Source: an uncultured Candidatus Saccharibacteria bacterium
GTDB taxonomy: Bacteria; Patescibacteriota; Minisyncoccia; Minisyncoccales; GWA2-38-27
NCBI GenBank assembly: GCA_964418955.1
Contig: CAYQNN010000002.1
Location: 1-32,868 of the forward strand
Direction of reading: 5' to 3'
DNA length: 32,868 nt
A model generated the notes under the pieces. The model did not search any database. It was not told the DNA's origin and saw only the letters and a program-made list of their open reading frames with translations. Made by a program: the position numbers and the translations under genes. Positions 1,963 to 31,811 of the stretch are shown here, in pieces (positions within the stretch are counted from its first letter, which is position 1; every line of letters begins with the position of its first letter).

Positions 1963-3057
1963 TTATAATCTGCGCTTGATTCTTCTTAATTTCTCAAAAA
2001 TATATGTTAAATAATAACGAGATGATAAAAGTAAATCTTGCGTTTTGATATATTCTTTTCTATAACCGCCGAATCCCATTTTAAATAAAGATAAACCTGC
2101 CCAGGGATGCTTTGATTCTCTTACATCGGATTTATCTTTAATATTAGGCGCTATCCCCCAAAAATTATATGTTTGGCATCCTCTTCTTTTTGCTTCTTTT
2201 ATCGCTTCCCATTGTAAAAGATAAGAAACCGGAATTTTTCGGTATTTAGATAAAGAAGCTCCTTGATGATAGAAACCAATATTTTGCCAAAAAACAATAA
2301 TTGCCGAAGAAACAATTTCCTCTCTATATTTCCCCAAAAATATCAATATCTGATCATCGGGTAAAAAAGAAGAAAATTCATTTTGAAGATAATTTATGGA
2401 AAAAGGCACAAATTTATGCCGTTCCGCTGTCAGGAAATAAATTTTATTAAATTCTTCCAAATCTTCAATATTCCTGCTTTTTACAATCTCAATATCCGTG
2501 TTTTTTTCTGCCTGTCTTATTAAATATCTGGCAGTTTTTCGCATTCCCATTAAAAGTTCTTCTTCTGATAGTTTAAGATTCAATTCCCAGGTAACTTCGG
2601 GGTGGATATGAATCGGGGCCTTTCTAAAGCCAAGTTTTTTAAAAATGTTTGTATTCTCTTCTTCTCTTTCCCCGCCTGCAACACTTCCCGCTGGAAGTGG
2701 GATGCGGGCTGGCCAAATAGGAGCAATTCTTATAAAACTTACTTTCTCTTTTTTGGCAATTATTTTAAGTTCATCTAATAACGTTCCTAATGCTTGGTTA
2801 TTGTTTCTTGGTGATTGGTTATTGACATTGGGTCCATGAGGAACAAACAAAAAAGTTCCTCTTTTTGCTTTAATTTTAACAACCAAAGCTAAAGCAAAAA
2901 GTTTTTCGCCGTTATATATTCCAAGCCGCCAAATCTTTTCGCCTTCTTTTTTCTGAAACTCGCCCCAGTTCCAAGAATCCAAAAAGGTTTTCTCCCTACA
3001 TCCTAATAAGAAATTTTCCCAAACTTCTTTATTGTTTATTTCTTTTACTTCCATCAT
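1963..3057 (-). CDS. FemAB-family peptidoglycan interpeptide-bridge aminoacyltransferase
   Basis: 364 aa. Family-typical FLFVPHGP, FYHQGASLSKYRKIPVSYLLQWEAIKEAKRRGCQTYNFWGI and a C-terminal FKMGFGG. Confidence 0.8.
   Translation of the reverse strand: MMEVKEINNKEVWENFLLGCREKTFLDSWNWGEFQKKEGEKIWRLGIYNGEKLFALALVVKIKAKRGTFLFVPHGPNVNNQSPRNNNQALGTLLDELKIIAKKEKVSFIRIAPIWPARIPLPAGSVAGGEREEENTNIFKKLGFRKAPIHIHPEVTWELNLKLSEEELLMGMRKTARYLIRQAEKNTDIEIVKSRNIEDLEEFNKIYFLTAERHKFVPFSINYLQNEFSSFLPDDQILIFLGKYREEIVSSAIIVFWQNIGFYHQGASLSKYRKIPVSYLLQWEAIKEAKRRGCQTYNFWGIAPNIKDKSDVRESKHPWAGLSLFKMGFGGYRKEYIKTQDLLLSSRYYLTYIFEKLRRIKRRL
2671..2708. repeat. CCCGC..GCGGG nested palindrome inside the FemAB gene
   Basis: Outer CCCGC (2671-75) pairs with GCGGG (2704-08). 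Inner CACTTCC-cgct-GGAAGTG (2682-2699). Contains CCCGCTGGAAGTGGG. Confidence 0.85.
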
Positions 3058-3059
3058 TT

Positions 3060-4319
3060 TTATTCTAACATATTTAGAAAATCTACTATTTTTTGGGCCT
3101 GCTTTTGAGAGATATTTATATGGGTTGGCAGATTCAAGGTTATTTTAGATAGCTTCTCGGCCTTTGGACAACTGCCCATTTTATATTTTACTTTATCTAT
3201 GTTCGTATCATAAGGAGCGATTGGGGTTGTGTACCAATCCCCTATTAAAAGATTTCTTTCCCATGCCTTTTTAATTATCTGGTGAGCTTTAGGATGTTTT
3301 ATTGTAAAACGCAAAAATATATTTTTTCTCTCTGGGTATTTTTTTGGAAGTTCAAAAGATGATTTTTTCAAATTTTCAGAGTAAAAATCGGCTATTTTTT
3401 TTCGGTGATTATTAAACTTTTCTAATTTTAGAAACTGATTTTTGGCAAGCAAGACCAAAGCGTTTGGCATTCTTCTGGGAAAATAAGACGGTCTTTTGCC
3501 TTGTTTTTCTTTCCAGTGAACCGCCTTAGACAAAATATGAAACCATTGAGATAAAACTAAAATAATCTTACCGATTAAAATTTTATAAGTTGGCAGGATT
3601 AAAAAATTCATTAGAATAGGATGCAACAGTTGTTGTAACGTCCAATAATATGAGGGATAAGCAAGTTTGTCCTGAATTTGGCGAAGTTTTTCGCCAAGCG
3701 AAGGATCGTTAGTTACCGCCATTCCCCCATAGACAGAAGAAATTATTTTGTCCCGGGAAAAACTGAAAAAAGCGGCCTTGCCAAAAGTTCCAACTTTTTG
3801 GCCCTTGCGATTAGCCCCTAAAGAATGGGCGCAATCTTCAATTAGAATCAAGTTATTTTGCCGCGCAATATCCAAAATTTGAGCCATTTCCGCAGGTAAG
3901 CCAAATGTATGCTGAATTATTAACGCTTTGCTCTTAGGCGTTATCTTTTTCCTTAAATCTTCAACATCAATATTAAAATCATCTTCATTACAATCAACAT
4001 AAACGGGTTTCAACCCCGACCATAATATCGGATTAGACGCGGCATTGCAGGTAAATGCCTGAAGTAAAATTTCACCTCCCGACTCCGAATCAAGGGCTCT
4101 CAAAATTGCTATTAGAGAAGAACGGCCGCTATTGAAAGAAAAAGCGTATTTTATTCCAAGATATTCTTTAAATTGATTTTCTAATTCCTTAATCGCCTTC
4201 CCTTTTTTCCACTTCCAGGGCTGAAAGATTAATTTTAAAGTTAACCAAATATCGTCTTTTTGGGTGTTTGGAGATAAAGATATTGTAATTGGCTTAAATG
4301 CTTGACAAAATTTAAACAT
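3060..4319 (-). CDS. DegT/DnrJ/EryC1/StrS-family PLP-dependent aminotransferase
   Basis: 419 aa. FNSGRSSLIAILRAL, IEDCAHSLGA and the PLP-lysine region FSFSRDKIISS. Contains an extra hydrophobic segment (LLHPILMNFLILPTYKILIGKIILVLSQWF). Confidence 0.8.
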   Translation of the reverse strand: MFKFCQAFKPITISLSPNTQKDDIWLTLKLIFQPWKWKKGKAIKELENQFKEYLGIKYAFSFNSGRSSLIAILRALDSESGGEILLQAFTCNAASNPILWSGLKPVYVDCNEDDFNIDVEDLRKKITPKSKALIIQHTFGLPAEMAQILDIARQNNLILIEDCAHSLGANRKGQKVGTFGKAAFFSFSRDKIISSVYGGMAVTNDPSLGEKLRQIQDKLAYPSYYWTLQQLLHPILMNFLILPTYKILIGKIILVLSQWFHILSKAVHWKEKQGKRPSYFPRRMPNALVLLAKNQFLKLEKFNNHRKKIADFYSENLKKSSFELPKKYPERKNIFLRFTIKHPKAHQIIKKAWERNLLIGDWYTTPIAPYDTNIDKVKYKMGSCPKAEKLSKITLNLPTHINISQKQAQKIVDFLNMLE

Positions 4320-4389
4320 ATGCTATGATGTAATTAGTAAAAAAGGAGTAAAATTTGTTCATTCACAATTTAATTGGGAAGGAAAGAAA

Positions 4390-4818: not shown

Positions 4819-4868
4819 CTCACTTCAAACCTCACCAAGGCCCTCACTCCTCCAAAAGGGCTATCTTT

Positions 4869-4906
4869 AAGCGTCAGATTCTTAAAATGAACTTGACGCT
4901 TTTTTA
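4869..4906 (+). terminator. Intrinsic terminator
   Basis: AAGCGTCA...TGACGCTT followed by TTTT. Confidence 0.55.
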
Positions 4907-6451
4907 TTTTAGTAATTCTATCACTTCTTTTGGCGCTCTGCCCTCTAAAAGAATTACATCTTCTGAACCAGAAAAATCTTTTAATTCAAGATTATTATGT
5001 TCATACCTTGGCGAATCAAGGTTCTGGCGAGCGTTAGCGAGGCAGGTTCTTATTTTCCCTATAATTTCTTTCGGTTTCTCTAAAAGCAAAGCGTTTGGCG
5101 CTTCCTGTTTTATTTCTCTAAAATAATCTTTTGTGGTAATTATCGCCAGGTCGCAAATTTGATTGATTTTTCTGCCAATCTTCCGGTGAATCCCGCTGGA
5201 AGCGGGACCCAATTCAATTAGACAGGGCATTATAATAACTTTTTTTCCTTTATAAAGTTTTAAATAGTCCAAATCAGCAATTACTCCTTGAGGATTTGCC
5301 GAATAAGAAGAATCAATAATGGTAGGACTTTTTCCTGCCTGCCGGCCGGCAGGTTTTTTTAAAAATTTAATTCCTCCCTGCTCCGGTTTAATTTTTAAAC
5401 AAGCTTTGGAAATTTCTTTTAATGTCATCCCTAATTTTTTAGCGTAGCAAGCAGCCAATGAAATGTTTTCAATATTTTGGTTTCCTAATAAGTTTAGTCT
5501 AAAGTGAGCAGAATCCCCATCTCGAGAAATCGCTTTAAAAGAAATAAACTCTTTCTCTATTTTTATATCCTCTGCCCAAACGTCAGGATTTAATATATTT
5601 TCAACAATGGCCTGTATTAAATTGCCGTTACAAAGCTCCTTCTTAATTTTAGTCTTCCTATAAAGCTGAACGCAATATTCATTAACCCCGTTAAAAATTG
5701 CCGTTCCATCTTCGGGCAAATTTTCAATTAATTCGTATTTCCCTGCAATAATGTTTTCTTGGGAACCGAAAGTAGATAAATGCTGTTCATTAATGCCGGT
5801 TAAAATGCCAATTTTCGGCTGGAGCATCTGGCAAACCTCTTTTATTTTTCCTTTCTCATAAGCGCCTACTTCGGCAATAAAAATTTGGTGTTCCGCTGTC
5901 AGCTCGTTCAAAATAGCTCGGGCAATTCCTATTTCAGCATTAATATGTTTTTTTGTTTTTAGGACTTTAAATTTCTGAGATAAAATCGTGGCTAAAAATT
6001 CTTTAGTAGAGGTTTTACCGTAACTGCCGGTAATGCCAACAGCTATCAGGTTTTTAAATTGCTCTCTCTTTTTTCTCGCCCTGTTTAAGGTTCTTTTTAT
6101 TAAAATAATCGCCGGAATTTGAAAAAGCAAAACCAAAAAAGAAAAAATTATTGGAGCAAGAATAAATAAAACTAAAAATAGAAAATAGAACAAAAAATTG
6201 GATAAACTAAAAGAATAAAATAAAATTAATAGTTCGCCCAATACTCCAAAAATTAAAATAATAATGGTCTTTTTGGTCGGTTTTGGATATCTTAAGCCGT
6301 GTAAACTGAAAAATAACTTTCTTAATTTCTGGGTTTCAAAGTGAGCTTTGAATCTGCCCCAGTGATATTCTTTTAATTGCCAAAGCCAAAGCCAAAATAA
6401 AAGGAGTTTTGTAAAAACTAAAAGCCAAATAATTGCGATAAATATCTTCAT
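4904..6451 (-). CDS. murF: UDP-MurNAc-tripeptide--D-Ala-D-Ala ligase (MurF) with a multi-TM N-terminal extension
   Basis: 515 aa. Mur ligase P-loop GITGSYGKTSTKE, then NAEIGIARAIL and AEVGAYEKGKIKEV...GINEQHLSTFGS, which are MurF-like. The first ~125 aa form about 4 TM helices in place of the usual N-terminal domain. Confidence 0.85.
   Translation of the reverse strand: MKIFIAIIWLLVFTKLLLFWLWLWQLKEYHWGRFKAHFETQKLRKLFFSLHGLRYPKPTKKTIIILIFGVLGELLILFYSFSLSNFLFYFLFLVLFILAPIIFSFLVLLFQIPAIILIKRTLNRARKKREQFKNLIAVGITGSYGKTSTKEFLATILSQKFKVLKTKKHINAEIGIARAILNELTAEHQIFIAEVGAYEKGKIKEVCQMLQPKIGILTGINEQHLSTFGSQENIIAGKYELIENLPEDGTAIFNGVNEYCVQLYRKTKIKKELCNGNLIQAIVENILNPDVWAEDIKIEKEFISFKAISRDGDSAHFRLNLLGNQNIENISLAACYAKKLGMTLKEISKACLKIKPEQGGIKFLKKPAGRQAGKSPTIIDSSYSANPQGVIADLDYLKLYKGKKVIIMPCLIELGPASSGIHRKIGRKINQICDLAIITTKDYFREIKQEAPNALLLEKPKEIIGKIRTCLANARQNLDSPRYEHNNLELKDFSGSEDVILLEGRAPKEVIELLK
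5191..5205. repeat. CCCGCTGGAAGCGGG mini-palindrome inside murF
   Basis: Exact 15-mer, also present at 27266-27280. Confidence 0.9.
5339..5352. repeat. Perfect 14-nt palindrome CTGCCGGCCGGCAG inside murF
   Basis: Flanked by T-runs. Encodes KKPAGRQAGK. Confidence 0.85.
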
Positions 6452-7239
6452 TGCAAAAATTTAATTATTATCTCCGATAATTTTCCCGGTGCCTCTAAAT
6501 GGGGGCTATGACCCACTCCCGTCAAAACTTCTAATTTTGAATCTTTGATATTCGCCTTAAAGATAGAAGCGTACTTCAAGGGAATTAATTTATCATTTTT
6601 CCCCCAGGCAAGTAAGGTTTCTATATTAATTCTCGAAAGCAAAGGAAGTAAATCTTCTTTTAATATTTTTTTGAACATCTCCCTCATTATTCCCTTTGTT
6701 TTAACATAATCAGCGCGGCGCAAAAAAAGATAAAACATATTTCTAACAGCGTCTTTAAATACCCGTAAAGGTTTTAAAGAAAAAACAGCATCGCCGAAGC
6801 TTGCTATCAAAAGAGCCATTCTCCTTTTTAGGTTTGGCTTTATTCTAAGACCGGCCGGAGAGCACAAAACTAACTTCTTAATTTTATCCGGATATCTCGC
6901 TGCTAATTTTATCGCTACTCTTCCCCCAAAAGAATGAGCTAAAACAGAAAAATTTTCCAAATTCAAAAAATTAATAAATTCAACCAGCCAAGCTAAATAA
7001 TCATCAAGCCGCCATATTTTTAGAGGGGTCTTGCTTTTCCCGAATCCTGGAAAATCGGGACAAATAACTTTAAATCCATTCTTGGATAAAATTTCCTGAA
7101 CTTTTATCCAAGAATCAGACGAACTGCCCCAGCCATGTAAAATCAAGACCTGCCCGCTGGCAGGCAGAGAGGTCTTTTCATCTTCAATAATTTTGTAGTT
7201 AGTTTCTAAGCCCCTGATAAGAATTTTTTGTTCCGTCAT
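6448..7239 (-). CDS. Alpha/beta-fold hydrolase
   Basis: 263 aa. LILHGWGSS, nucleophile elbow AHSFGG and a C-terminal GHSPHLE. There is a 4-nt ATGA overlap with the murF start. Confidence 0.8.
   Translation of the reverse strand: MTEQKILIRGLETNYKIIEDEKTSLPASGQVLILHGWGSSSDSWIKVQEILSKNGFKVICPDFPGFGKSKTPLKIWRLDDYLAWLVEFINFLNLENFSVLAHSFGGRVAIKLAARYPDKIKKLVLCSPAGLRIKPNLKRRMALLIASFGDAVFSLKPLRVFKDAVRNMFYLFLRRADYVKTKGIMREMFKKILKEDLLPLLSRINIETLLAWGKNDKLIPLKYASIFKANIKDSKLEVLTGVGHSPHLEAPGKLSEIIIKFLQ
7145..7176. repeat. Nested GC-rich inverted repeats inside the hydrolase gene
   Basis: AAGACCT...AGGTCTT, and CCTGCC-cgct-GGCAGG. Contains CCCGCTGG. Confidence 0.8.
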
Positions 7240-8592: not shown

Positions 8593-10053
8593 TTATTTTT
8601 TAGGTTTCATTGTGGGAAATAAAATAACCTCTCGCAAGCTGTGAGAATCGGTTAACAATGCCGTTAAACGGTCAATACCCATGCCAAAGCCGGCGGCCGG
8701 AGGCATACCGTATTCCAATGCCTCAATAAAATCTTCATCCATTCTTTGGGCTTCTTCAAAGCCCTGTTTAAATATCTTTTCCTGCTCTTTAAATCTTCTT
8801 CTTTGCTCAATTGGATTATTAAGCTCGGAAAATGCTTTAACTAATTCCATACCAACGCTTACCAACTGAAAACTGGCAGATTTTTTAGGATTTTTATCAA
8901 AAGGTTTGGCCAAAGGAAACATTCCTGCCGGATAATTTATAATAAATATCGGCTGTAAAATTTTCGGACGGCAGCACTTCTTGTAAATTTCGTCGGCAAT
9001 ATTATTTTTATCTCCCTCCGCTTTTACGCCCATCTTTTTTGCTTTTTTCCGAAGGGCTTCTATGTGTATTTCGTCTAAATCAATTTTTGTGTATTTTCTG
9101 AAAAGTTGGTTAAATTCAATCCGCGGCCAAGGAGTTTTAAAGCTAATCTTTTTCCCTTCATATTCTATTTCCAGTTTTCCAAACAAATTTTTCAGCAAAA
9201 CCGAAAACATTTTTTCTGCAAATTTCATTAAATCCTTGTAATCGGCATAAGCCCAGTAAAATTCCAGCATAGTAAAATCAGGATTATGAGCCCTGTCCAC
9301 TCCTTCATTTCTAAAACACTTTCCGATTTCATACACCTTTTCAAATCCGCCAACTAAAAGCCGTTTTAAATAAAGTTCCGGCGAAATTCTTAAATATAAA
9401 TCAACATCAAGCGCGTTTAAATGGGTTTTAAACGGCTTGGCTTTCGCGCCTCCGTAAATTGGCTGTAAAATAGGCGTTTCTACCTCTAAAAACTCTTCAC
9501 TCTCCAAAAATTTTCTGATTTCTTTAATAACTTTTGAACGCAGTTCAAATTTCTTTTTAACTTCCGGGTTAAAAATTAAATCTAAATATCTTTTCCTGTA
9601 TCTTCCCTCCACATCTTTTAGGCCGTGCCATTTTTCCGGCAGAGGAAGTAAAGATTTAGCTAAAATTTTATAATCTGCTATTTCCAATGTTTTTTCTCCT
9701 TTTTTTGTTTTGAATAAAATTCCTCTGATTTCAATAAAATCTCCGATATCAAAATTATCCAAGAAAAACTGATATCCTTTTTCTCCCAGCCGGTCTTTTT
9801 TGAATAAAACCTGAATTTGGCCTGTTCCGTCTTTAACATCACAAAAAGCAAGCCCTCCATGCTGCCTTAAGGATATTATTCTGCCAGCCAGAATTATTTC
9901 CTTTTTTGCCCTTGCCAATTTGTTAAAATCTTTAATGGTTTGAGCGCAACTATGAGTTCTTTTTGTCTGTTCGGGATAAGCCAAAAGTCCGGCGTTTTCA
10001 ATCGCCTTAAGTTTTTTGACCCGATTTTTTCTTATTTCATCTATTGTCGCCAT
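8593..10053 (-). CDS. lysS: Lysyl-tRNA synthetase, class II
   Basis: 486 aa. OB-fold N-terminus, CFRNEGVDRAHNPDFTMLEFY, GMPPAAGFGMGIDRL. Confidence 0.95.
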   Translation of the reverse strand: MATIDEIRKNRVKKLKAIENAGLLAYPEQTKRTHSCAQTIKDFNKLARAKKEIILAGRIISLRQHGGLAFCDVKDGTGQIQVLFKKDRLGEKGYQFFLDNFDIGDFIEIRGILFKTKKGEKTLEIADYKILAKSLLPLPEKWHGLKDVEGRYRKRYLDLIFNPEVKKKFELRSKVIKEIRKFLESEEFLEVETPILQPIYGGAKAKPFKTHLNALDVDLYLRISPELYLKRLLVGGFEKVYEIGKCFRNEGVDRAHNPDFTMLEFYWAYADYKDLMKFAEKMFSVLLKNLFGKLEIEYEGKKISFKTPWPRIEFNQLFRKYTKIDLDEIHIEALRKKAKKMGVKAEGDKNNIADEIYKKCCRPKILQPIFIINYPAGMFPLAKPFDKNPKKSASFQLVSVGMELVKAFSELNNPIEQRRRFKEQEKIFKQGFEEAQRMDEDFIEALEYGMPPAAGFGMGIDRLTALLTDSHSLREVILFPTMKPKK

Positions 10054-10092
10054 TGTATTAGTTTAACTTATTTTTTATCTTGGGTCAAAACC

Positions 10093-10122
10093 AAAAAACG
10101 GCTCCGCTCAGCGGAGCCGTTT
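10093..10122 (-). terminator. Intrinsic terminator
   Basis: 12-bp stem AAACGGCTCCGC/GCGGAGCCGTTT with a T-run on the minus strand. Confidence 0.8.
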
Positions 10123-10132
10123 CCTTTAATAC

Positions 10133-10903
10133 CTAATCAATAAATTTAAAAGTAGAAATAATTTTTTCAATAATTTCAAGTCTCTCTTTTCTAACCTTCT
10201 CATAATCTTTCTCGTCTTTCGTGCCGTAACCAGTAGTGTAACTTATCTCAAAAAGATGTTTTGAATTCTGAATATATATTGATATTTGATCGTCGTAGTC
10301 TTCTTCATTGCCAAATCGAAGTCTTTTTGCATAACCAATTGTACTATCCAAATTAATTTTTGAATAATCGGCAAAAGACAGATTAATAAGTTTTTTATAA
10401 TAATCAGGGTCACTTTTATATATATCAATCTCGTTTTTCACATATTTTTCTAGATCTTCTACTGGTTCAACAGAAACTAAAAAGCTTATTCCTGCTTTTC
10501 CATCAAGCCAAGCGCCTGGAGTCCATTTACCAGTCGTAGATCCAATGAATCCTTCCAACGCTGGGAAATCGCTACCGAGAGTTACATTTGTGCCACCCAC
10601 CGGAGAAAATTTACTAAAATTTGCCGCAATTGGAATAGAGTTAATGGTTTCAGGATACTTTATCTCGTACCCATACTCCTCGTTTCTATAAACATTCCAA
10701 TCAGCGGTTTCGGATTTTGGCGTTTCTGTTTCTTCCGGCGTTTCTGTCTTTGGTAAATTAGCAGAAGGGATGTTTATTTCTCCTTGTTTAGGCAACCAAA
10801 CATACTGATAAGAAAGAAAGACAACAGCGCCAACAATGGCTACCAAGATTACAACTATAATCCCGAATGAAGATGAAATGCCTTTTTGATTTTGATTATT
10901 CAT
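10133..10903 (-). CDS. Hypothetical N-terminally anchored extracytoplasmic protein
   Basis: 256 aa. One TM helix, a T/E/P-rich linker, then WNVYRNEEYGYEIKYP. Has its own promoter (10947-10975) and terminator (10093-10122). Confidence 0.6.
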   Translation of the reverse strand: MNNQNQKGISSSFGIIVVILVAIVGAVVFLSYQYVWLPKQGEINIPSANLPKTETPEETETPKSETADWNVYRNEEYGYEIKYPETINSIPIAANFSKFSPVGGTNVTLGSDFPALEGFIGSTTGKWTPGAWLDGKAGISFLVSVEPVEDLEKYVKNEIDIYKSDPDYYKKLINLSFADYSKINLDSTIGYAKRLRFGNEEDYDDQISIYIQNSKHLFEISYTTGYGTKDEKDYEKVRKERLEIIEKIISTFKFID

Positions 10904-14124: not shown

Positions 14125-15237
14125 TCATCTTTTCTTAGATTTAGAAATATTCAACAATATTCCTATACCTATTAGTTCAACAGCTATGTGCGAACCGCCA
14201 TAACTAATAAAAGGCAAGGGAATACCGGTAATGGGCAAAATTTCTGTCATAGCGCTGATATTAATAAATGCCTGAAGGCAAATCCAGGAAGTTAAACCAA
14301 TAGCGAATAATTGAGAAAATTTATTATCAGCGCTTCTTGCAATTTTTATTCCTCGCCAAAGAAACGCCAGATAAAAAAAGATTAAAACTAAAGAACCGGC
14401 TAATCCTAACTCCTCGGCAATGACAGTAAAAATTGAATCTGATATCGGCTGAGGCACATATAAGGCCTGATTTGACGCTCCAAGACCCAAACCGAAAATT
14501 CCTCCAGAGCCAATAGCAATTTTTGCCTTTTCTATTTGATACCCTATTCCTAATGGATCTCGAATTAGCCCTAAAAGCACAAAAATTCTTTTTATCCGAT
14601 AAGAAGAAATAATCGTAAAGACGGAAAAAATACTTAAGCCAATTAAAAATATTAAAATATTATGCCAAATTGACGTTCCGGAAGAAAAATATATTAGAAA
14701 GGCAACTACGGCAATTACTAATAGTGTGCTTAAATCTGATTGAAAATATAAAAGAACAATAATAATACCTAAAATTATTAAGAAAGGGATCAAAGTTAGC
14801 TTCCATTCTTTTTTCCTTTTTCCCCCCAATGTTTTATTTGCCAATAAAGCCGAAAGATAAATAATAAAGGCGAGTTTTAAAAGTTCTGACGGCTGGAAAG
14901 TAAATTGTCCGAAGTTTATCCAGCGGGAAGCGCCGCCAGAAGAAATTTTAAGTCCGGGTATAAAAATCAAACTCATTAAAATTAAGCTTACCAAGATAAA
15001 TATCCAAGACCATTTTTTTATAAAAGATAAGGGTATTTTAAAAACGATAAACCCTAAAACTCCTCCCAGAAGGAGTCCATAAATTAGTTGATGAAAAAGA
15101 TAATGAGTGGTATTTCCGAACTGCTGTTGGGAAATAACGGCAGAAATTCCTGCTGAAACCAAAAGTCCCAAAATCAATAAAACCGCTACTATAATAATTA
15201 AAAAATAATCAGGATGATTGGTTTTTTCTTTAGTCAT
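14125..15237 (-). CDS. ftsW: SEDS-family peptidoglycan glycosyltransferase FtsW/RodA
   Basis: 370 aa polytopic membrane protein. QPSELLK, AEELGL, PLPFISYGGS. Lies between murD and murG. Confidence 0.9.
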   Translation of the reverse strand: MTKEKTNHPDYFLIIIVAVLLILGLLVSAGISAVISQQQFGNTTHYLFHQLIYGLLLGGVLGFIVFKIPLSFIKKWSWIFILVSLILMSLIFIPGLKISSGGASRWINFGQFTFQPSELLKLAFIIYLSALLANKTLGGKRKKEWKLTLIPFLIILGIIIVLLYFQSDLSTLLVIAVVAFLIYFSSGTSIWHNILIFLIGLSIFSVFTIISSYRIKRIFVLLGLIRDPLGIGYQIEKAKIAIGSGGIFGLGLGASNQALYVPQPISDSIFTVIAEELGLAGSLVLIFFYLAFLWRGIKIARSADNKFSQLFAIGLTSWICLQAFINISAMTEILPITGIPLPFISYGGSHIAVELIGIGILLNISKSKKR

Positions 15238-15242
15238 AGGGC

Positions 15243-16544
15243 TTAGGGTGTGGGATTTGAACCCTTTGCCGATTTAATAAATTGTTTTCCCCTATCAAAT
15301 TCATTTTTGAATAAATTAAAACTGGCCGCTCCGGGAGAAAGTAAAATAATATCGCCCTTTTTGGCTTGTTTTGACGCTTTTTTTACCGCTTCTTTCATTG
15401 AATTTACGAGAAAAACAGAGACCCGTTCTCTGTCAACTGACAGAGAACGGGTCTCTGACATTTTTTTCAATCTTTTTTTAATTTTATTTGTAGCTGTGCC
15501 CGGCAGAAGAATAAGAGAGCTTATCTCTTTTTGGATTTCTTTTGCTAAGCTTTTATAATTTAGTTTTTTATCCTGACCACCGGCAATGAGAATAATTTTC
15601 GATTTAGGAAATTTTTCCCTGAAAGCAGCTATCGCTAATATTGCCGACTGAGGCGTGGTAGCAGTAGTATCATTGATGTATCTTATTCCTCTCTTCATAG
15701 CAATCAGCTCCTGCCTGTTGGAAACGCCCTTAAAATTAGAAAGAACTTTTTTAATATTTTTTTTAGAAACTTTGAAAATTTTAGCCACAGCAATGGCAGC
15801 TGAATTATTAGAACCTTTAAAAAAATGAACCCTTGAATGACCTTTTAAGACAAGCTTTCTTACCTCAAGGTCATTATAATTTAAAACTAAAATATCATTT
15901 TTTTTCTGGTATTTAAAAATTGGTTCTTTTGCTTTAATATAATCTTTAAAATTTTTATATCTGTCCAAATGGTCAGGGAAAAGATTGGTAATAACCGCCA
16001 CCTGCGGACTTTTCTTCAAATCCTCCAATTCAAAACTGGAAAGTTCTAAAACAACCCTACTTTTTTTATTCACTTTTGGCAGGATTTCCAAGGGTGAAAC
16101 TCCAATATTGCCGGCTAAAACAGTGTTTGGATACTTAGTTTTTAAAAATAAATAGATAAGAGTAGCAACGGTTGATTTGCCCTTGGTGCCGGTAATCCCA
16201 ATAATCGGAGCTTTGCATAAATCAAAAAAAATATCTATATCGGTTTTTATAGGAATTTCATGTTTTCTAGCAAATTTAAGATAAGGGGAGTTTTGAGGTA
16301 CAGCCGGATTTTTAATAATTAAGTCTGTATTGATAAAATCTTCCTTTCTGTGCTTACCCAATACAAATTTTATGGGAAAACCTTTAAGTTTTTGGAGAGA
16401 TTCTTTCAATTGGCTTTTAGTTTTTAAATCCGTTACAAGAGGTTTAGCTCCTTGTTGACAAAAAAATTTGGCTGTTCCTACTCCTCCGCCGTGTAATCCT
16501 AATCCTATTATGGTTACCTTTTTACCATTAAATATTTTTTTCAT
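15243..16544 (-). CDS. murD: UDP-MurNAc-L-Ala--D-Glu ligase (MurD)
   Basis: 433 aa. N-terminal GLGLHGGG Rossmann-like region, GITGTKGKSTV, C-terminal LLSPGAASFNLFKNEFDRGKQF. Confidence 0.9.
   Translation of the reverse strand: MKKIFNGKKVTIIGLGLHGGGVGTAKFFCQQGAKPLVTDLKTKSQLKESLQKLKGFPIKFVLGKHRKEDFINTDLIIKNPAVPQNSPYLKFARKHEIPIKTDIDIFFDLCKAPIIGITGTKGKSTVATLIYLFLKTKYPNTVLAGNIGVSPLEILPKVNKKSRVVLELSSFELEDLKKSPQVAVITNLFPDHLDRYKNFKDYIKAKEPIFKYQKKNDILVLNYNDLEVRKLVLKGHSRVHFFKGSNNSAAIAVAKIFKVSKKNIKKVLSNFKGVSNRQELIAMKRGIRYINDTTATTPQSAILAIAAFREKFPKSKIILIAGGQDKKLNYKSLAKEIQKEISSLILLPGTATNKIKKRLKKMSETRSLSVDRERVSVFLVNSMKEAVKKASKQAKKGDIILLSPGAASFNLFKNEFDRGKQFIKSAKGSNPTP
15416..15457. repeat. 42-nt palindrome (20-bp perfect arms) inside murD
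   Basis: CAGAGACCCGTTCTCTGTCA-ac-TGACAGAGAACGGGTCTCTG. Confidence 0.95.
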
Positions 16545-16558
16545 ATTATCGTCTAATT

Positions 16559-16576
16559 AAATGTCGCACAATAAAA
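16559..16576. repeat. 18-nt exact repeat AAATGTCGCACAATAAAA, copy 1
   Basis: Identical to 32405-32422. Both copies abut a hairpin. Confidence 0.8.
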
Positions 16577-16607
16577 ACCTTTCGTCCCGCTTCTAGCGGG
16601 AAACCTT
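16575..16607. repeat. Intergenic CCCGC-TTCTA-GCGGG hairpin flanked by a 7-nt direct repeat AAACCTT
   Basis: AAACCTT-tcgtCCCGCttctaGCGGG-AAACCTT. The loop orientation is opposite to the genic copies. Confidence 0.7.
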
Positions 16608-16672
16608 GATTTAGTTCACAGCGAGTTCGCCACGAGCTGCTAAGGTATAGATATACAATCTTGAATTAAAAA

Positions 16673-17535: not shown

Positions 17536-17573
17536 AACTCTCTAAAATTCACTATCGTGAATTTTAGAGAGTT
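17536..17573. repeat. Perfect 17-bp-arm palindrome, core CTCTAAAATTCAC-N4-GTGAATTTTAGAG
   Basis: Located in the divergent intergenic region between murI and CDS 17708. Confidence 0.95.
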
Positions 17574-18429: not shown

Positions 18430-19488
18430 TTAGCCAAGTAATCTAATTGCCACTCCAATTATTGCCGCCACGATGCCAATTATCCAAAATCGCATTGTAA
18501 TTTTATAATGAGGCCAGCCCTTGGCTTCAAAGTGATGGTGAATAGGAGCAGCTAAAAAAAGTTTTTTACGGCAAATTTTTCGGGAAAGAAGCTGAAGAAT
18601 TACCGAACCGGATTCAATTACCAGTAAAAAACCGATTACTGGTAAAACCAAAACAGAATCGGTTAAAAAGGCAACTACGGTTAAAGCGGAGCAAAGACCC
18701 ATTATGCCTGTTTCTCCCATATAAAACCTGGCCGGAGGAATATTGAACCAAAGAAAAGCTAAAATTGCCCCGGTAACTACTACGCAAAAGGCGGCTATAT
18801 TAATTTGTCCGTTGAATAAAGCAATAGCGCCGAAAGCGGCAAAAATTACAGCAAATGCGCCACCGGCTAAACCGTCTAAACCATCAATTACTCCTCCGCT
18901 ATAGGTTGCGAGCATCACTAAAATAAAAAAAGGAATATACCAAACGCCCATAAAAAAATCTCCATTACTGGGAATATGCAGAGCGCTATATCCTAATTTA
19001 TAATAAAACCACCAACCGCCGATTAGTCCAATTAAGGCAACTAAAAATAATCTATATCGTAACCGTAAACCGCCGCCGATATATTTTCCCTTACCCGAGA
19101 CCTGCAAAATATCATCTGCTATTCCCACTAAAGACGCAGAAATTAAGGCAAAAAGCGGCAGCCAGGTCTGGGATCTACTTAAAAAATTTAATTCTTGAAA
19201 CCAGTAAATATTTGTTTTAGAAAGAAAAAAGAAAAAAAACGCCAAAAATAAAGTAGTTCCCCAGATAAGCAATCCGCCAAATCTCGGAACATTGGCTTCC
19301 CCTTGACTATGGAACTTCTGAAAATAAACAAGGTTTTCGCCATCTATTGATTTTGTTCTGATTTCCTTCCGCCAAAGCTTATGTTTATATAAAAAATGAG
19401 TAAGAAGCGGCGTCAACCAAAAAGCCAAAATAAAACTAAGCGCTCCCAAAGTAAAAATTTTAATAACATCTATAGTAATTTCGTTCAT
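18430..19488 (-). CDS. mraY: Phospho-MurNAc-pentapeptide translocase (MraY)
   Basis: 352 aa polytopic protein. GIADDILQV, VIDGLDGLAGG, APIHHHFE. Confidence 0.95.
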   Translation of the reverse strand: MNEITIDVIKIFTLGALSFILAFWLTPLLTHFLYKHKLWRKEIRTKSIDGENLVYFQKFHSQGEANVPRFGGLLIWGTTLFLAFFFFFLSKTNIYWFQELNFLSRSQTWLPLFALISASLVGIADDILQVSGKGKYIGGGLRLRYRLFLVALIGLIGGWWFYYKLGYSALHIPSNGDFFMGVWYIPFFILVMLATYSGGVIDGLDGLAGGAFAVIFAAFGAIALFNGQINIAAFCVVVTGAILAFLWFNIPPARFYMGETGIMGLCSALTVVAFLTDSVLVLPVIGFLLVIESGSVILQLLSRKICRKKLFLAAPIHHHFEAKGWPHYKITMRFWIIGIVAAIIGVAIRLLG

Positions 19489-24217: not shown

Positions 24218-24229
24218 GGAGCTCTTTGT

Positions 24230-24287
24230 GACTTGCCCTGAGCTTGCCGAAGGAGCCTGCCCTGAGCGAGCGAAGCGAGCCGAAGGG
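24230..24287. repeat. 58-nt GC-rich repeat, intergenic copy
   Basis: 50/58 identical, without gaps, to 25603-25660. Confidence 0.9.
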
Positions 24288-25358: not shown

Positions 25359-26747
25359 TTAAAATTTCGCTCTCCATTGCTCGCTCAGGTTATAAATATC
25401 CCCGGCGCCCATAATAATTACTACCTCCCCTCCCTGCAAATTCCTCTTTAGATAATTTTTTACTCTTCCTTCTGGCAAATAGATCGCTTGGGGTTTGTTG
25501 AGCTTCTTAATTAATTTTTCTGAGCTAACTTTCTTCTTTATTCCTCCTTTTTCCCTGCCGGCTACGTCATAAATATCAGTGATTATTAATTTATCTATTT
25601 GGGACTTGCTATGAGTTTGCCGAAGGAGCTTGCCCTGAGAGAGCGGAGTGAGTCGAAGGGCTTTGGAAAAAACATTAATAAAATCATTAAATAAATAAAA
25701 AGTTCTTTGGTATTGGTGGGGCTGAAAAATACACCAAATTTTCTTTTTTGGGAAGTATTCCCTTGCCGCTTCCAGGGTGGCTTTAATCTCGGTTGGATGG
25801 TGAGCGTAATCTGAAATAATAGTAATTTTCTTATTGCTAATTATTCCTTTCTCTATTTCAAAGCGCCGCCAAGCGCCTTTGTATTGAGATAACGCTTTAA
25901 ATGAAACTTTGTCTGAAACTTTCAAAGCCCGAGCCACTGTTAAAGCGGCTAAAGCATTATAGACATTATGTTCTCCTGGTATTTTTAGAATTTTTTTTAA
26001 TCTTTCTGCTTCTTTCTGTTTTATTGAAAACTCTCTAATTGAAAATTTATTAAATCCCGCTGGAAGCGGAAGGAAATTGGAAATTTTTTTGATATTTCTA
26101 TCATCTCTATTCGCTATCAACACTCCGTCTTCTGGAAGATGCTCTATATATTCTTTAAAAGTTTTTAAAATATGCTTCAAATTCTTGTAATAATCAAGAT
26201 GTTCTCTTTCAATGTTGGTTAAAACTATAATCTTGGGCCAATAATTTAAAAAAGATGCCTGCCATTCATCTGCCTCAATAACTAAATACTCGCTCTTCCC
26301 TATTCTAAAATTAGTCTGGCCAAATTCTTTTAACTTGGTGCCGATAATTACTGTTGGGTCAAGCCCTGCTTTTATCAAAATAGAAGCTGCCATTGCGCAG
26401 GTTGTGCTTTTTCCGTGGGTGCCGGAAATTGCAATGGTAAAATATTTTTTTGTTAATCCTCCCAACGCTTCGGGATAGCTTTGGATTTTAATGCCCAACT
26501 TTTTCGCTTTCTTAATTTCCGGATTATCTGGCTGAACCGCCGGACTATAAATTACTAAATCAGCGTCATCTGACAGGTTTTTAGCCAAATGCCGCGCAAT
26601 AAAAATTTTGGCTCCTGATTTTTTCAGGAAATCGGTAATTTCCGAAGACGCTAAATCAGAACCGCTAACCCGATGCCTTTTTGCTAAATAATACTGGGCA
26701 AGGGCAGATACACCTATCCCGCCGATGCCAACAAAATGTATTCTCAT
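25359..26747 (-). CDS. murC: UDP-MurNAc--L-alanine ligase (MurC)
   Basis: 462 aa. FVGIGGIGVSALAQYYL..VSGSD, ISGTHGKSTT, DYAHHPTEI. Confidence 0.95.
   Translation of the reverse strand: MRIHFVGIGGIGVSALAQYYLAKRHRVSGSDLASSEITDFLKKSGAKIFIARHLAKNLSDDADLVIYSPAVQPDNPEIKKAKKLGIKIQSYPEALGGLTKKYFTIAISGTHGKSTTCAMAASILIKAGLDPTVIIGTKLKEFGQTNFRIGKSEYLVIEADEWQASFLNYWPKIIVLTNIEREHLDYYKNLKHILKTFKEYIEHLPEDGVLIANRDDRNIKKISNFLPLPAGFNKFSIREFSIKQKEAERLKKILKIPGEHNVYNALAALTVARALKVSDKVSFKALSQYKGAWRRFEIEKGIISNKKITIISDYAHHPTEIKATLEAAREYFPKKKIWCIFQPHQYQRTFYLFNDFINVFSKALRLTPLSQGKLLRQTHSKSQIDKLIITDIYDVAGREKGGIKKKVSSEKLIKKLNKPQAIYLPEGRVKNYLKRNLQGGEVVIIMGAGDIYNLSEQWRAKF
25603..25660. repeat. 58-nt GC-rich repeat, copy inside murC (in-frame)
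   Basis: Encodes ALRLTPLSQGKLLRQTHSKS on the minus strand. Confidence 0.9.
26056..26069. repeat. CCCGCTGGAAGCGG mini-palindrome inside murC
   Basis: Read as LPLPAG, a different frame from the murF and thpR copies. Confidence 0.85.
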
Positions 26748-27385
26748 TTTTCAGATTCTAAATTATGAGATTCTAAGATTGTATATTCTGGCCCCCTCTT
26801 TTTTAAGATGCTTTCCATCGCTTCAATTGAATTAGCCGAGAAGCTCAGATTAATATTTTCATTAACAACCGGCCTTTCTTCCGGTTCAATTCGTTTCCAC
26901 TCCCACTGCTTAATTCTTCCCAAAGTGATATGAGGAGAAAATGTTCTATTTTCAGCAGAAAAACTGGCATTTGCCGAATCAGACAAGGATTTATCTAAAT
27001 TATCTTTTAAAGAAGCGAATTCTTTTGATTTTTCCCCTATCGCCCAAATCATCTTGGGCGGTCTTTTATCAAGAGTTTGCCCCGCCCGAGGCAAAGGTCC
27101 ATAACAAATCTTAATTAAATTAACTAAAAATGGCGGCTGCTTAGACGCTACCTTTTTAACAATATTACAGATATCCAAAAGTTCGTCATTATTAACATAC
27201 CCAATAAAATCCAGCGTAATATGAATATTTCTTATTTTCGTCCATCTAATCGGCCCCATATCAGCCCCGCTGGAAGCGGGACGTTGCAGAGTAAATAATT
27301 CTTCAATCTTTTTCTGATATTCAGCCAATTTTTTCTTTATATCTTCCGGTAGATTTATAGCGACAAAAATACGATGTCTTTGCAT
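26744..27385 (-). CDS. thpR: RNA 2',3'-cyclic phosphodiesterase (2H family, LigT/ThpR)
   Basis: 213 aa. Two HxTx motifs (NIHITLDF and SPHITLGR). ATGA overlap with the murC start. Confidence 0.85.
   Translation of the reverse strand: MQRHRIFVAINLPEDIKKKLAEYQKKIEELFTLQRPASSGADMGPIRWTKIRNIHITLDFIGYVNNDELLDICNIVKKVASKQPPFLVNLIKICYGPLPRAGQTLDKRPPKMIWAIGEKSKEFASLKDNLDKSLSDSANASFSAENRTFSPHITLGRIKQWEWKRIEPEERPVVNENINLSFSANSIEAMESILKKRGPEYTILESHNLESEK
27266..27280. repeat. CCCGCTGGAAGCGGG mini-palindrome inside thpR
   Basis: Exact 15-mer. Read as RPASSG. Confidence 0.9.
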
Positions 27386-27439: not shown

Positions 27440-27489
27440 AATTATACCCCTCTAAAATTCACGACCGTGAATTTTAGAGGGGTATAATT
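27440..27489. repeat. Perfect 23-bp-arm palindrome with the same core, CTCTAAAATTCAC-N4-GTGAATTTTAGAG
   Basis: Located in the divergent intergenic region between thpR and amrS. The outer arms read GGGGTATAAT outward on both strands. Confidence 0.95.
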
Positions 27490-28588: not shown

Positions 28589-28589
28589 T

Positions 28590-29237
28590 ATGATAAAATT
28601 CGCTTGTTTTTCGCCCCATCCTCCTCTCTTGCTTCCGAACGTAGGTTCAGAAGAAGACAAAAGAAAAGTAAAGAAAACAATTGAAAGTTTAGAGGAGCTG
28701 GGTAAATCCTTAAACGAGACAAGTCCAGACGGCATAGTCATTTCTTCTCCTCACCCCGACTGGGGATTTAATGTGCCGCTCCACTTTTTAGCTCCGGATT
28801 TTAAAGGAGAGATAAAAACTTTCTTAACGGGGATTGAATCACCGATATCTCATTTTGAGAAAGGAAAAGAATTTTATTTAAAAATTAAAAATTTAAAATC
28901 AAAAATTGCCCTCGTAGCCAGTGGGGATTTATCCCACTGCTTGAAGGAAGATGGTCCTTATGGTTTTAATCCCGATGGTCCTAAATTTGATAAAGCTCTA
29001 ATAGAATTTTTAAAGAAAAAAGATATTGAAAATTTTTTTAAATTAGACGAAATGTACCCGGAAGCAGGAGAATGCGGCTTGCGTTCTTTTTCTTTCCTTT
29101 TGGGCATTCTGGAAAGTGCCAATATTAACTGGCAACCAGAAATTTTATCTTACGAAGGTCCTTTCGGGGTTGGCTATTTGGCAGCAAACCTTACCCTATT
29201 AAATAGCGCTGGAAGCAATTTAACGGGTAAAAATTAA
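28590..29237 (+). CDS. Memo/LigB-superfamily protein (AmmeMemoRadiSam protein B-like, short form)
   Basis: 215 aa. FSPHPP, SSPHP, SGDLSH, AGECG. Sits between the radical SAM and AMMECR1 genes. Confidence 0.7.
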   Translation: MIKFACFSPHPPLLLPNVGSEEDKRKVKKTIESLEELGKSLNETSPDGIVISSPHPDWGFNVPLHFLAPDFKGEIKTFLTGIESPISHFEKGKEFYLKIKNLKSKIALVASGDLSHCLKEDGPYGFNPDGPKFDKALIEFLKKKDIENFFKLDEMYPEAGECGLRSFSFLLGILESANINWQPEILSYEGPFGVGYLAANLTLLNSAGSNLTGKN

Positions 29238-29238
29238 A

Positions 29239-29553: not shown

Positions 29554-29559
29554 AATAAT

Positions 29560-30168: not shown

Positions 30169-30829
30169 CCAAAAAATTGCTAAAATATTTTATGAAATAG
30201 CTGACCTTTTGGAAATAAAGGGAATCAATTTTAAACCAAGGGCTTACCGCAGGGCAGCAAAATCTTTAGAAAATTTAGAGAAAGATATTTCTTTTATTAA
30301 AAAAGAAAAAGGAATCAAGGGAATTAAAGAAATATCCAGCATTGGGAAAAGTATTGCTGATAAAATAGAAGAATATCTAAAAAAAGGAAAAATTAAGTAT
30401 TATGAAAAATTAAAAGAAGAAACTGCTATCCGCCAGATAATCACTCATTTTTTTAAAACTAAAGGAGTTTCATTGGCCGAACTTAAAAAGAGCGCTAAAA
30501 AAAGCAAAATAGTTTACTCAAGATTTACCAAACCGGCTAAACAGCTTTTAGAGCTGGCCGGTTCTATTGAAAAAGCAAAGAAAGCAATTGATAAAGTCGC
30601 TGAATGGGCAAAATCAAGAGATTTGGATTATGCCATAGAAACGGTTTTTAAAAAATGGTTAGAATTAGACAAATTAAAGCCAAAAGAAATAGTAAAAAAA
30701 CCATTTTACAGAAAAAATCCGATGGTTTGGTCGGAAACAAAAAGAAAATGGTATGTAATTGACGATGGCGGCGAATGGTTAGAATTTGCCGGAAAAGAAT
30801 CTGATATTGAGTGGCGAATAGCAAAATAG
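30161..30829 (+). CDS. Helix-hairpin-helix protein resembling only the N-terminal (8-kDa/HhH) part of family X DNA polymerases, with an unknown C-terminal half
   Basis: 222 aa. NQKIAKIFYEIADLLEIKGINFKPRAYRRAAKSLE...SSIGKSIADKIEEYLKKGKI matches the PolX N-terminus. No polymerase or PHP motifs are seen. 8-nt overlap with amrA. Confidence 0.6.
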   Translation: MTNQKIAKIFYEIADLLEIKGINFKPRAYRRAAKSLENLEKDISFIKKEKGIKGIKEISSIGKSIADKIEEYLKKGKIKYYEKLKEETAIRQIITHFFKTKGVSLAELKKSAKKSKIVYSRFTKPAKQLLELAGSIEKAKKAIDKVAEWAKSRDLDYAIETVFKKWLELDKLKPKEIVKKPFYRKNPMVWSETKRKWYVIDDGGEWLEFAGKESDIEWRIAK

Positions 30830-30839
30830 AAAAACATTT

Positions 30840-31811
30840 ATGGAAAAGCTAAAAATTATCTTTCTCGGCACTCCAAAATTTGGAGCGACTATTTTAAAAG
30901 GGCTTATCGAAAATAACTATAAGCCAGTTTTGGTTATTACCGCTCCAGATAAACCCGTTGGCAGAAAGCAAGTTCTAACTCCTCCGCCAGTAAAAACCAT
31001 TGCGGAAAAACATAAAATTTCAGTTGAGCAGCCGCCAAAAATTAGAAATTGGAAAGCAGCCCTCCAGGAAGTCCGCCCGAAGGCGTCCAGAGAAATTGGA
31101 AATTTAAAACCAGACTTGGGGATCGTTGCGGCATATGGCCAGATAATACCACAAAATATATTAACTATCCCCAAATATGGTTTTTTAAATGTTCATCCTT
31201 CTCTTTTGCCAAAATATCGAGGGGCCAGTCCAATCCAAGCCGCTATTTTGAACGGAGACGAGAAAACTGGCCTAACTATAATTTTAATGGATGAAAAAAT
31301 GGATCATGGGAAAATAGTTTCCAGTTCTCAATTTCTAATTTCCGATAAAAAAATTACTTGCCCAGAACTCTCTCAAAAATTAGCCGAGTTGGGAGCTAAT
31401 CTCCTTAAAGAAACGATCCCGAAATGGGTAAAAGGTGAGATTAAGCCAAAAGCCCAAAATGAAAAAAATGCTACTTACACGAAAATTATTAAAAAAGAGG
31501 ATGGTAAAATTGACTGGTCAAAACCAGCCGAAGAAATTGAAAGGCAAATCAGAGCTTTTACTCCCTGGCCGGGGAGCTTTACTTTTTGGCAAAAACCTGC
31601 CCGCAATGCCTCCGGCATAGCCGTTGCAAGCGGGAATGATAAAACTTTTAGAGTAAAAATATTGGAAGCTGATGTCTTAAAAAACAAAATTCCCTCAAAG
31701 ATTTGCTTTAAATGCGGAAAAGATTACTTAATGATTAAAAAACTTCAGCCGGAAGGTAAAAAACCTGTGACGGCCGAAGATTTTTTAAGAGGATACCATG
31801 AATTATTCTGA
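30840..31811 (+). CDS. fmt: Methionyl-tRNA formyltransferase
   Basis: 323 aa. IFLGTPKF, VAAYGQIIP, NVHPSLLPKYRGASPIQ, TPWPG. Confidence 0.95.
   Translation: MEKLKIIFLGTPKFGATILKGLIENNYKPVLVITAPDKPVGRKQVLTPPPVKTIAEKHKISVEQPPKIRNWKAALQEVRPKASREIGNLKPDLGIVAAYGQIIPQNILTIPKYGFLNVHPSLLPKYRGASPIQAAILNGDEKTGLTIILMDEKMDHGKIVSSSQFLISDKKITCPELSQKLAELGANLLKETIPKWVKGEIKPKAQNEKNATYTKIIKKEDGKIDWSKPAEEIERQIRAFTPWPGSFTFWQKPARNASGIAVASGNDKTFRVKILEADVLKNKIPSKICFKCGKDYLMIKKLQPEGKKPVTAEDFLRGYHELF
31600..31634. repeat. CCCGC..GCGGG nested palindrome inside fmt
   Basis: CCCGC-a-ATGCC-tcc-GGCAT-agccgttgcaa-GCGGG. Encodes ARNASGIAVASG. Confidence 0.75.

Follow-up and report, generated by a model that had tools for sequence, protein, structure and literature searches.

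The stretch of DNA analyzed here, referred to as the window, is one complete contig of 32,868 bp with 35% G+C, and the element under study is a small GC-rich hairpin, marked by the word CCCGCTGG and the 15-mer CCCGCTGGAAGCGGG, that recurs within and between its genes. The window holds a dcw-type (division and cell wall) cluster with aminoacyl-tRNA synthetase genes interleaved:

Minus strand: ftsQ, femAB, degT, murF, an alpha/beta hydrolase gene, serS, lysS, murG, ftsW, murD, murI, mraY, a penicillin-binding protein (PBP) gene, aspS, murC and thpR
Plus strand: a radical-SAM gene, fmt, efp and others

The gene names proposed in an earlier note on this DNA agree with Pfam (FemAB, Mur ligases, alpha/beta hydrolase, LigT/ThpR, formyltransferase). 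The closest protein relatives of the host, a bacterium of the candidate phyla radiation (CPR), are Patescibacteria/Parcubacteria, Nealsonbacteria-like by their source names. For comparison we used about 1 Mb of related DNA, made up of 80 MurF-linked metagenome loci and several contigs from close relatives with conserved synteny, labeled by locus number (L001, L211 and so on); the host genome is represented by this single 32.9-kb contig. Word counts were set against dinucleotide shuffles, and hairpins in coding sequences against 200 synonymous-codon shuffles.

The word CCCGCTGG occurs seven times in the window against 0.28 ± 0.51 expected, and none of 100 dinucleotide shuffles reached seven. 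Six matches lie on the plus strand (2687, 5192, 7153, 17857, 26056 and 27266) and one on the minus strand (14920). The earlier note had listed five plus-strand occurrences and estimated an expectation far below one; the estimate holds and all five are present, with the murF copy at 5192 rather than 5191, while 17857 and 14920 had been missed. A mismatch search returned the same 15-mer copies as that note: CCCGCTGGAAGCGGG is exact at 5192-5206 (murF) and 27266-27280 (thpR), has one mismatch at 2687 (femAB) and 26056 (murC), and recurs in reverse orientation, again with one mismatch, as a loop-inverted intergenic copy at 16586-16600. Five copies in the window therefore lie within one mismatch of the 15-mer, and the 15-mer family counted 11 against 0.22 expected. 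The pattern CCCGC-N3-32-GCGGG gave six matches against 0.23 in shuffles, among them the two "expanded" versions already described at 2671-2708 and 31600-31634. Some candidates were set aside. The minus-strand word at 14920 consists of the conserved S-R-W codons of FtsW (TCC CGC TGG) and is not a family member, and a supposed degenerate copy at 29205 falls outside the matches with up to three mismatches and is indistinguishable from chance. The word at 17857 is a half-site of uncertain status. The focal copies, together with the hydrolase insertion that carries half of the motif, are as follows:

5191-5207, minus strand: exact copy in murF, TCCCGCT-TCC-AGCGGGA, encoding PASSG (residues 416-420)
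27265-27281, minus strand: exact 15-mer copy in thpR (LigT-like 2',5' RNA ligase family), encoding PASSG (residues 36-40)
26055-26081, minus strand: one-mismatch copy in murC, TCCGCT-TCC-AGCGGGA, inside a 9-residue in-frame insertion, SNFLPLPAG
2671-2712, minus strand: GC-rich 14-residue in-frame insertion in femAB, PARIPLPAGSVAGG
16585-16601, no strand assigned: intergenic copy in the murI-murD spacer, loop variant TCT/AGA
7142-7176, minus strand: 7-residue hairpin insertion in the hydrolase gene, residues 23-29, ..TSLPASGQ..

At its core the element is a perfect hairpin of 17 nt, T-CCCGCT / 3-nt loop / AGCGGG-A, with a stem of 6-7 bp. Because the stem is self-complementary, orientation is encoded by the three loop bases only, and the 4:1 split among the five copies is not significant (p = 0.375). 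Four of the five are intragenic. The 15 nt use rare GC-rich codons and are read as PASSG in murF and thpR and as (L)PLPAG in murC and femAB; the half-motif of the hydrolase gene is read as LPASG. The use of the same DNA in two frames and once between genes supports a DNA-level entity rather than a protein motif; the earlier note had argued for the DNA or RNA level. The tetranucleotide CGTC precedes the hairpins at 27266 and 16586, and GGTC, CTTC and CATC precede the other three; GTAG is found at none.

Comparison with orthologues showed that these elements entered genes in two ways, by in-frame insertion or by short patches that leave the length unchanged, in either case at length-variable, structurally tolerant loops. 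Peptides such as PASSG, PLPAG and PAGRQAG are by-products. In-frame insertions with no counterpart in the named orthologues comprise murC +9, femAB +14, hydrolase +7, fmt +13 and murF +7 residues, which supports lineage-specific insertion with presence/absence polymorphism for several copies. The murC insertion sits in a hypervariable linker and is missing from the closest orthologues, L210, L209 and L207. That in femAB, not present in L211 or L003, is nested, with outer CCCGC..GCGGG arms around an inner 7-bp hairpin (2682-2699) that carries the one-mismatch copy CCCACTTCCAGCGGG; the orthologous insertion of L126 shares the 3' end (GTTGCAGGCGGG) and has another interior, so the focal hairpin took the place of the interior of an older and larger one. 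In the hydrolase gene, arms CTGCC/GGCAG with outer AAGAC/GTCTT enclose a loop containing CCAGCGGG, half of the focal motif. This insertion is common to the window and L211 and missing in L213, L003 and L002; its loop, ACTACC in L211, was rewritten at the same length in the window only, and L175 has a different palindrome one to two codons away.

Not every focal copy is an insertion. The exact murF copy is a five-codon same-length replacement, CCC GCT TCC AGC GGG in place of AAR GCN TCA AAR GAA, and its PASSG aligns gap-free with the KASKE of about 75 relatives and the DSSWQ of the Acinetobacter MurF (PDB 4qdi). The thpR copy lies within a length-variable loop that many homologues lack. At the orthologous position L207 has CCCGCC-AG-GGCGGG, which shares the hairpin base, shows compensation at the inner pair and differs in the loop; the thpR hairpin base is therefore older, and its apex was remodeled in the window. 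The earlier note had placed every copy in an extra loop and had looked to presence or absence in relatives as a check. This was borne out for murC, femAB, the hydrolase gene and fmt, which are inserted, whereas thpR was remodeled within a variable loop, and at the murF site homologous residues occupy the same alignment columns, which that note had itself named as evidence against insertion.

The intergenic copy differs from the genic ones in the orientation of its loop. It was considered as an intrinsic terminator and rejected: a consensus scan gave no terminator-like site there, and the T-run begins 7 nt past the stem. The murI-murD spacer that contains it (16545-16672) is 128 nt long; its counterpart measures 38 nt in L213 and 2 nt in L211. 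In place of the long spacer, L211 has a 12-residue N-terminal MurD extension with another GC-rich hairpin (CTGCCCAAGGCGGGGCA).

The focal family belongs to a wider population of GC-rich mini-palindromes in this CPR lineage and its relatives. Coding sequences of the window contain 23 GC-rich hairpins against 8.4 ± 2.7 under synonymous-codon shuffling, and 15 with stems of at least 6 bp against 3.8 ± 1.9; no shuffle reached either observed count. This excess, about three- to fourfold over the synonymous-codon null, thus sits in the DNA and not in the proteins. About half of the window-specific insertions of at least 7 residues relative to orthologues have 54-81% G+C (background 35%), and these are mostly hairpins (ftsQ 1228-1257, murF PAGRQAG, hydrolase, murD 15416-15457, murC, the 13-residue fmt insertion and femAB); an 11-residue insertion in fmt is GC-rich and folds weakly. 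The elements outside the focal family are:

1228-1257, minus strand: perfect 30-nt hairpin in ftsQ with a 13-bp stem, within a 16-residue GC-rich insertion relative to L003
5333-5353, minus strand: 7-residue in-frame palindromic insertion PAGRQAG in murF, CCTGCCGGCCGGCAGG, representing a second local family, CCTGCC..GGCAGG
15416-15457, minus strand: perfect 42-nt palindrome in murD, a 13-residue in-frame insertion
25595-25660, minus strand: in-frame copy in murC of a 66-nt GC-rich repeat, ..LRLTPLSQGKLLRQTHSKS.., with a second, intergenic copy at 24222-24287
31596-31634, plus strand: 13-residue in-frame insertion in fmt, PARNASGIAVASG, a member of the cross-lineage "PARNA" hairpin family

The ftsQ hairpin has a DNA folding energy of -16.7 kcal/mol (z = -6.2). 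In murF, PAGRQAG corresponds to a 7-residue gap against 4qdi. The AlphaFold model of MurF, with a mean predicted local distance difference test (pLDDT) score of 84.6, supports the placement of the inserted segments in predicted low-confidence loops, as they coincide with stretches 369-372 (pLDDT <50) and 474-492. At the other end of the same protein (murF, 4904-6451), residues 1-125 form a hydrophobic N-terminal extension, predicted to be all-helical, that replaces the usual N-terminal domain in the clade; Pfam and PDB matches start only near residue 127-140, and the sequence suggests that MurF in this clade may be membrane-anchored. The two copies of the 66-nt repeat are 85% identical. The one in murC adds about 19-22 residues at a position that is occupied in many relatives by other insertions (LRRxQGKP-type), and the intergenic one lies directly 5' of a promoter-like TTGACA...TACAAT site.

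The "PARNA" hairpin, about 36-40 nt long, has the form CCTGCCCGCAATGC...GCGWTGCAGGCGGG (also written CCTGCCCGCAATGC...TGCAGGCGGG) and encodes PARNAS..AGG. It is found in the window fmt, in L126 at 3688 (femAB), in L152 at 4648, and in L168 at 4582 and L169 at 6810, that is, in four different genes of four lineages. Its frame and sense are constant though five of the six frames are open (chance about 0.008 among open frames). L175 has a family of its own, the 20-nt perfect palindrome GCCTGCCTGCGCAGGCAGGC, present three times in open reading frames (8150, 9286 and 11913) and encoding LPAQAG; one copy lies at most two codons from the site of the hydrolase insertion in the window. We rejected an assembly artefact as the source, since the same insertions appear in independent assemblies from different samples (L211/L212, L213/L214, L207/L208 and L168/L169).

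Other repeats were observed alongside these. In L207, mraY carries a 78-nt GC-rich in-frame insertion (18640-18720) missing in the window and in L209, in which an inner hairpin element is flanked by the 12-nt direct repeat CCAGCCTCGCTG; this repeat could be a target duplication or reflect a nested insertion. The window also has two long AT-rich perfect palindromes, at 17536-17573 and 27440-27489 (17- and 23-bp stems), with the common core CTCTAAAATTCAC..GTGAATTTTAGAG. The latter lies in a divergent spacer where gene orientation switches from minus to plus, at the minimum of cumulative GC skew (about 27-29 kb), and may represent a common operator or be close to a replication origin.

The murD palindrome shows how such elements evolve. 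It has counterparts in L211 (2207-2266) and L213 (11070-11129), and all 20 of 20 pairs are kept in the three sequences, with four double changes, no one-sided change and no G-T pairs. Symmetry was thus maintained during divergence, each change in one arm being matched on the opposite arm. The 4-nt center in L211, AGTT, is the reverse complement of AACT in the window, and the whole palindrome has been flipped in L211, paralleling the loop-inverted intergenic copy of the focal family. In protein alignments, palindrome-type peptides occur at this site in P0400, P0413, P0422 and P0436, as does a short "TETRVS" form. Sense and antisense folds of ten elements were equally stable, with no asymmetry. 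Strict Watson-Crick symmetry, flipping of the center and the lack of strand asymmetry point to arm-to-arm templating at the DNA level (concerted evolution) as the probable cause, rather than selection on an RNA helix. Remodeling of the apex on an older hairpin is seen in thpR compared with L207, in femAB compared with L126 and in the hydrolase gene compared with L211.

Across the 0.95 Mb of MurF-linked relatives, a search allowing up to two mismatches recovered the 15-mer nowhere but at the orthologous MurF site, and neither the 15-mer nor CCCGCTGG is present in the close syntenic loci L211, L212, L213 and L207; apart from that one site, the family is private to the window lineage in this comparison. 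At the MurF site, the same codons carry the identical 15 nt in the sister L001, CTA GCT TCC AGC GGG in L002, and CCC GCT TCT AGC GGG in L124, whose loop equals that of the intergenic copy in the window. The hairpin is missing there in L126, L125, L003, L211, L213 and about 70 others; L126, L125 and L211 are the nearest relatives of the carriers and keep the ancestral codons. Three independent acquisitions, as read from a neighbor-joining tree, became less tenable once an analysis of informative sites revealed a mosaic 3' third in L002/L125. This pair is 87% identical across murF, and its informative sites divide 213:39 in the 5' part and 42:50 in the 3' part (Fisher p = 3e-12, or 4e-8 without the bin containing the element). 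The sister signal is gone in the last ~500 nt, where L002 agrees as often with the window lineage as with L125. The pattern indicates probable recombination between Parcubacteria lineages within murF, and homologous recombination can thus explain at least the L002 copy. A scan of public genome contigs gave at least 120 exact 15-mer matches, single chance matches in GC-rich genomes; among the matches listed, only L105 has less than 45% GC. In viral contigs, a 17-mer scan gave 11 single matches in contigs of 40-62% GC, consistent with chance, and a scan for the "PARNA" pattern gave none.

As the most likely reading, we consider the chances about even that the focal elements are non-coding palindromic repeats resembling repetitive extragenic palindromes (REPs) or Rickettsia palindromic elements (RPEs), tolerated in protein loops, templated arm to arm, and spread by short templated conversion or by a hairpin-specific transposase. 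In such a pathway, symmetry would be kept by arm-to-arm templated correction of DNA, through an intrastrand hairpin or template switching. The family would be homogenized when one CCCGC..GCGGG hairpin donates its apex to further GC-rich hairpins or to sites of partial similarity, with the GC-rich arms serving as microhomology for short-patch conversion, and the MurF copy would have moved between related genomes by homologous recombination. An alternative motor, which we hold to be somewhat less likely than enzyme-independent templating, would be a single-strand (Y1 type) REP-associated tyrosine transposase (RAYT) encoded elsewhere in the genome. Profile searches of the window proteins found no transposase. 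The syntenic relative L003 has a RAYT-like Y1 transposase gene (Y1_Tnp; 9574-10293) between degT and femAB, which scores 38 bits against NCBIfam REP_Tyr_transpos, below the cutoff of 80. A hairpin with a 12-bp stem, GCTAGCGGAGAT-ACG-ATCTCCGCTAGC, lies inside its open reading frame, and a loop-inverted second copy lies just past the stop codon; this hairpin differs from the focal one. A tblastn search with the L003 transposase over related loci (~0.98 Mb) returned only the self-match. A 15-mer arm of the murD palindrome found upstream of the transposase with two mismatches was dropped, as about 1-2 such matches are expected by chance.

There are precedents for such repeats within genes. Intragenic REPs tagged with GTAG or CGTC are documented in tRNA-synthetase and repair genes, where they add residues, as are intragenic RPEs, and REPs occur at about the same recB site in two Xanthomonas species (Di Nocera et al. 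2013, PMC3733652). Like REPs, the window elements are short GC-rich hairpins that repeat in families specific to a lineage; some REPs also lie wholly within open reading frames, and the relative L003 has a RAYT-like gene with hairpin repeats of its own. The window elements differ from REPs in size (15-17 nt with a 6-7 bp stem in a perfect hairpin, compared with imperfect palindromes of 20-40 nt and at least 8 bp for REPs, a range reached only by the "expanded" versions of 39-42 nt at 2671-2712 and 31596-31634), in location (four of five copies intragenic, whereas REPs are mostly extragenic), in the lack of a consistent GTAG/CGTC tag and of a RAYT gene in the window, in one same-length replacement, and in their CPR host, a group outside that survey (PMC3733652). 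Similarity to RPEs, which the earlier note had proposed as tolerated loop insertions, lies in palindromic repeats placed in-frame in unrelated essential genes of a small AT-rich genome, with a tolerated peptide and presence/absence variation. The proposal was broadly right, given the insertions in murC, femAB, the hydrolase gene, fmt and murF (+7) and the loops of the MurF model, but does not extend to the exact PASSG copy in MurF. RPEs are also about 100-150 bp long and genus-wide, whereas the window elements are 15-42 nt long and belong to one lineage, with no sequence similarity between the two.

Other short palindromes offer partial parallels. The GC clusters of yeast mitochondria are GC-rich palindromes of about 30-40 bp in an AT-rich genome, mostly intergenic with some inside genes, and are thought to be mobile or recombinogenic; we know of no dedicated transposase for them. 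Like the window elements they are short and GC-rich, but the organellar, eukaryotic setting differs and no homology is implied. HIP1 (GCGATCGC) of cyanobacteria is an 8-bp loopless palindrome found about once per kb throughout the phylum, and produces no insertions. It resembles the window elements in being short, GC-rich and over-represented in genes, with upkeep at the DNA level irrespective of frame. Compared with known REPs and RPEs, the elements described here are much shorter, mostly intragenic, without a consistent tag, capable of same-length replacement and hosted by CPR bacteria, and a literature search found no report of palindromic or in-frame repeats in CPR genes.

Several observations weigh against the reading as REP/RPE-like repeats. 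The exact murF copy exchanged 15 nt through 9 base changes at unchanged length, and we know of no transposition mechanism that gives such a replacement. No target-site duplication or conserved tag is evident (CGTC before only two of the five copies). No described REP or MITE (miniature inverted-repeat transposable element) is as short as the 15-17 nt unit, and relative to the mRNA the loops of the four genic copies all point the same way. Lineages with about 65-75% protein identity retain hairpins at orthologous sites, which could equally reflect selection for a function. Microhomology-mediated conversion between unlinked loci is a step that we infer, and the evidence comes from 33 kb of the genome. 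A more speculative reading, to which we give a low probability, is that CPR/Parcubacteria host an undescribed enzyme- or replication-driven process of "palindrome-writing" that makes, symmetrizes and copies GC-rich hairpins by short templated patches. Copying would then run from hairpin to hairpin, even to orthologous sites of other lineages, with loops continuously remodeled; the 15-mer family would be the present template of this lineage, and may double as a recombination or uptake tag.

Same-length replacement also recalls uptake signals of the DUS/USS type (DNA uptake sequence/uptake signal sequence), in which DNA carrying TCCCGCTGGA or its hairpin would be preferentially taken up or recombined and would replace resident alleles at tolerant codons. 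The MurF replacement, the same-length rewriting of the hydrolase loop, the presence of the element at identical MurF codons in lineages that are not sisters, next to mosaic sequence, and half-sites at 7153 and 17857 without a partner arm all fit such a signal, as does a lineage-private word placed in coding DNA at tolerant positions, in several frames. Origin through substitution instead of insertion, and spread through recombination, are further points of resemblance to uptake sequences. CPR bacteria commonly encode competence machinery, and Neisseria uptake sequences often occur as inverted pairs. We nonetheless judge this explanation unlikely. The density of about 0.15-0.2 per kb (5-7 copies in 32.9 kb) is some fivefold below that of known uptake sequences, which number ~1 per kb, mostly as single copies in both orientations. 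The copies here are for the most part tight, perfect hairpins; two of them are insertions instead of substitutions, and no competence genes are visible in the window. A single word is also insufficient, as the unique perfect palindromes in murD and ftsQ and the unrelated families in relatives behave alike. Selection for mRNA hairpins, acting for example in transcript processing or stability across the long dcw operon or by pausing translation locally at domain linkers, would account for the shared sense-strand loop orientation of the four genic copies, for orthologous-site persistence with compensatory changes in thpR and murD, and for "PARNA" copies that are all sense and in one frame. This too seems improbable to us. 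An Rfam scan of the entire window at gathering thresholds gave no covariance-model match (a scan for tRNA and tmRNA genes found none either), and folds are equally stable in sense and antisense. The stems are strictly Watson-Crick, without G-U pairs or one-sided changes, which is unusual for selected RNA helices; the palindrome center flips between close relatives, and elements are missing at the same sites in close relatives with the same operon. Bias in frame and sense is also explicable by selection on the peptide.

The earlier note had further suggested a strand-polar recombination or segregation signal oriented with replication, such as Chi or KOPS (FtsK orienting polar sequences), and indeed six of the seven CCCGCTGG words lie on the plus strand in a region of uniformly negative GC skew, with AGCGG and GAAGCGG in the word resembling Chi of Bacillus and Staphylococcus. 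Chi and KOPS are non-palindromic, replication-skewed words, whereas the window word has self-complementary arms that place AGCGGG on both strands at every full copy. The 6:1 strand split does not reach significance (p = 0.125), and a conserved protein motif accounts for one of these words. To our knowledge, polar signals neither need nor form hairpins or insertions, and we regard a signal of this kind as very improbable. Least credible of all is an origin by chance, base composition or protein-level convergence, in which GC-rich codons would follow simply from loops rich in Pro, Ala and Gly. Conserved G/A/P motifs (GTxGKS, FAGGGTAGH) do underlie many of the GC-rich islands in the window, the word at 14920 among them. 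However, neither dinucleotide nor synonymous-codon shuffles ever reached the observed counts, and identical 15-mers in rare codons occur in two frames and between genes, so that for the five core copies this explanation is effectively refuted.

CPR bacteria have tiny, gene-dense genomes that are assumed to be repeat-poor. In the window, GC-rich palindromes lie in-frame in cell-wall and translation genes (murC, murD, murF, femAB, ftsQ and fmt). Part of the protein length variation in CPR bacteria would then be repeat DNA and not adaptation, which bears on annotation, on marker-gene alignments and phylogenies, and on structure prediction. With almost no intergenic space, selfish hairpin DNA would be confined to tolerant protein loops, making CPR genomes a natural screen for loop tolerance in which such hairpins survive only inside loops that accept them. 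Compensated, center-flipped and site-recurrent palindromes would also offer a tractable case for the upkeep and copying of small palindromes under minimal repair systems, where template switching, gene conversion and Y1 transposase activity are candidate processes to study.

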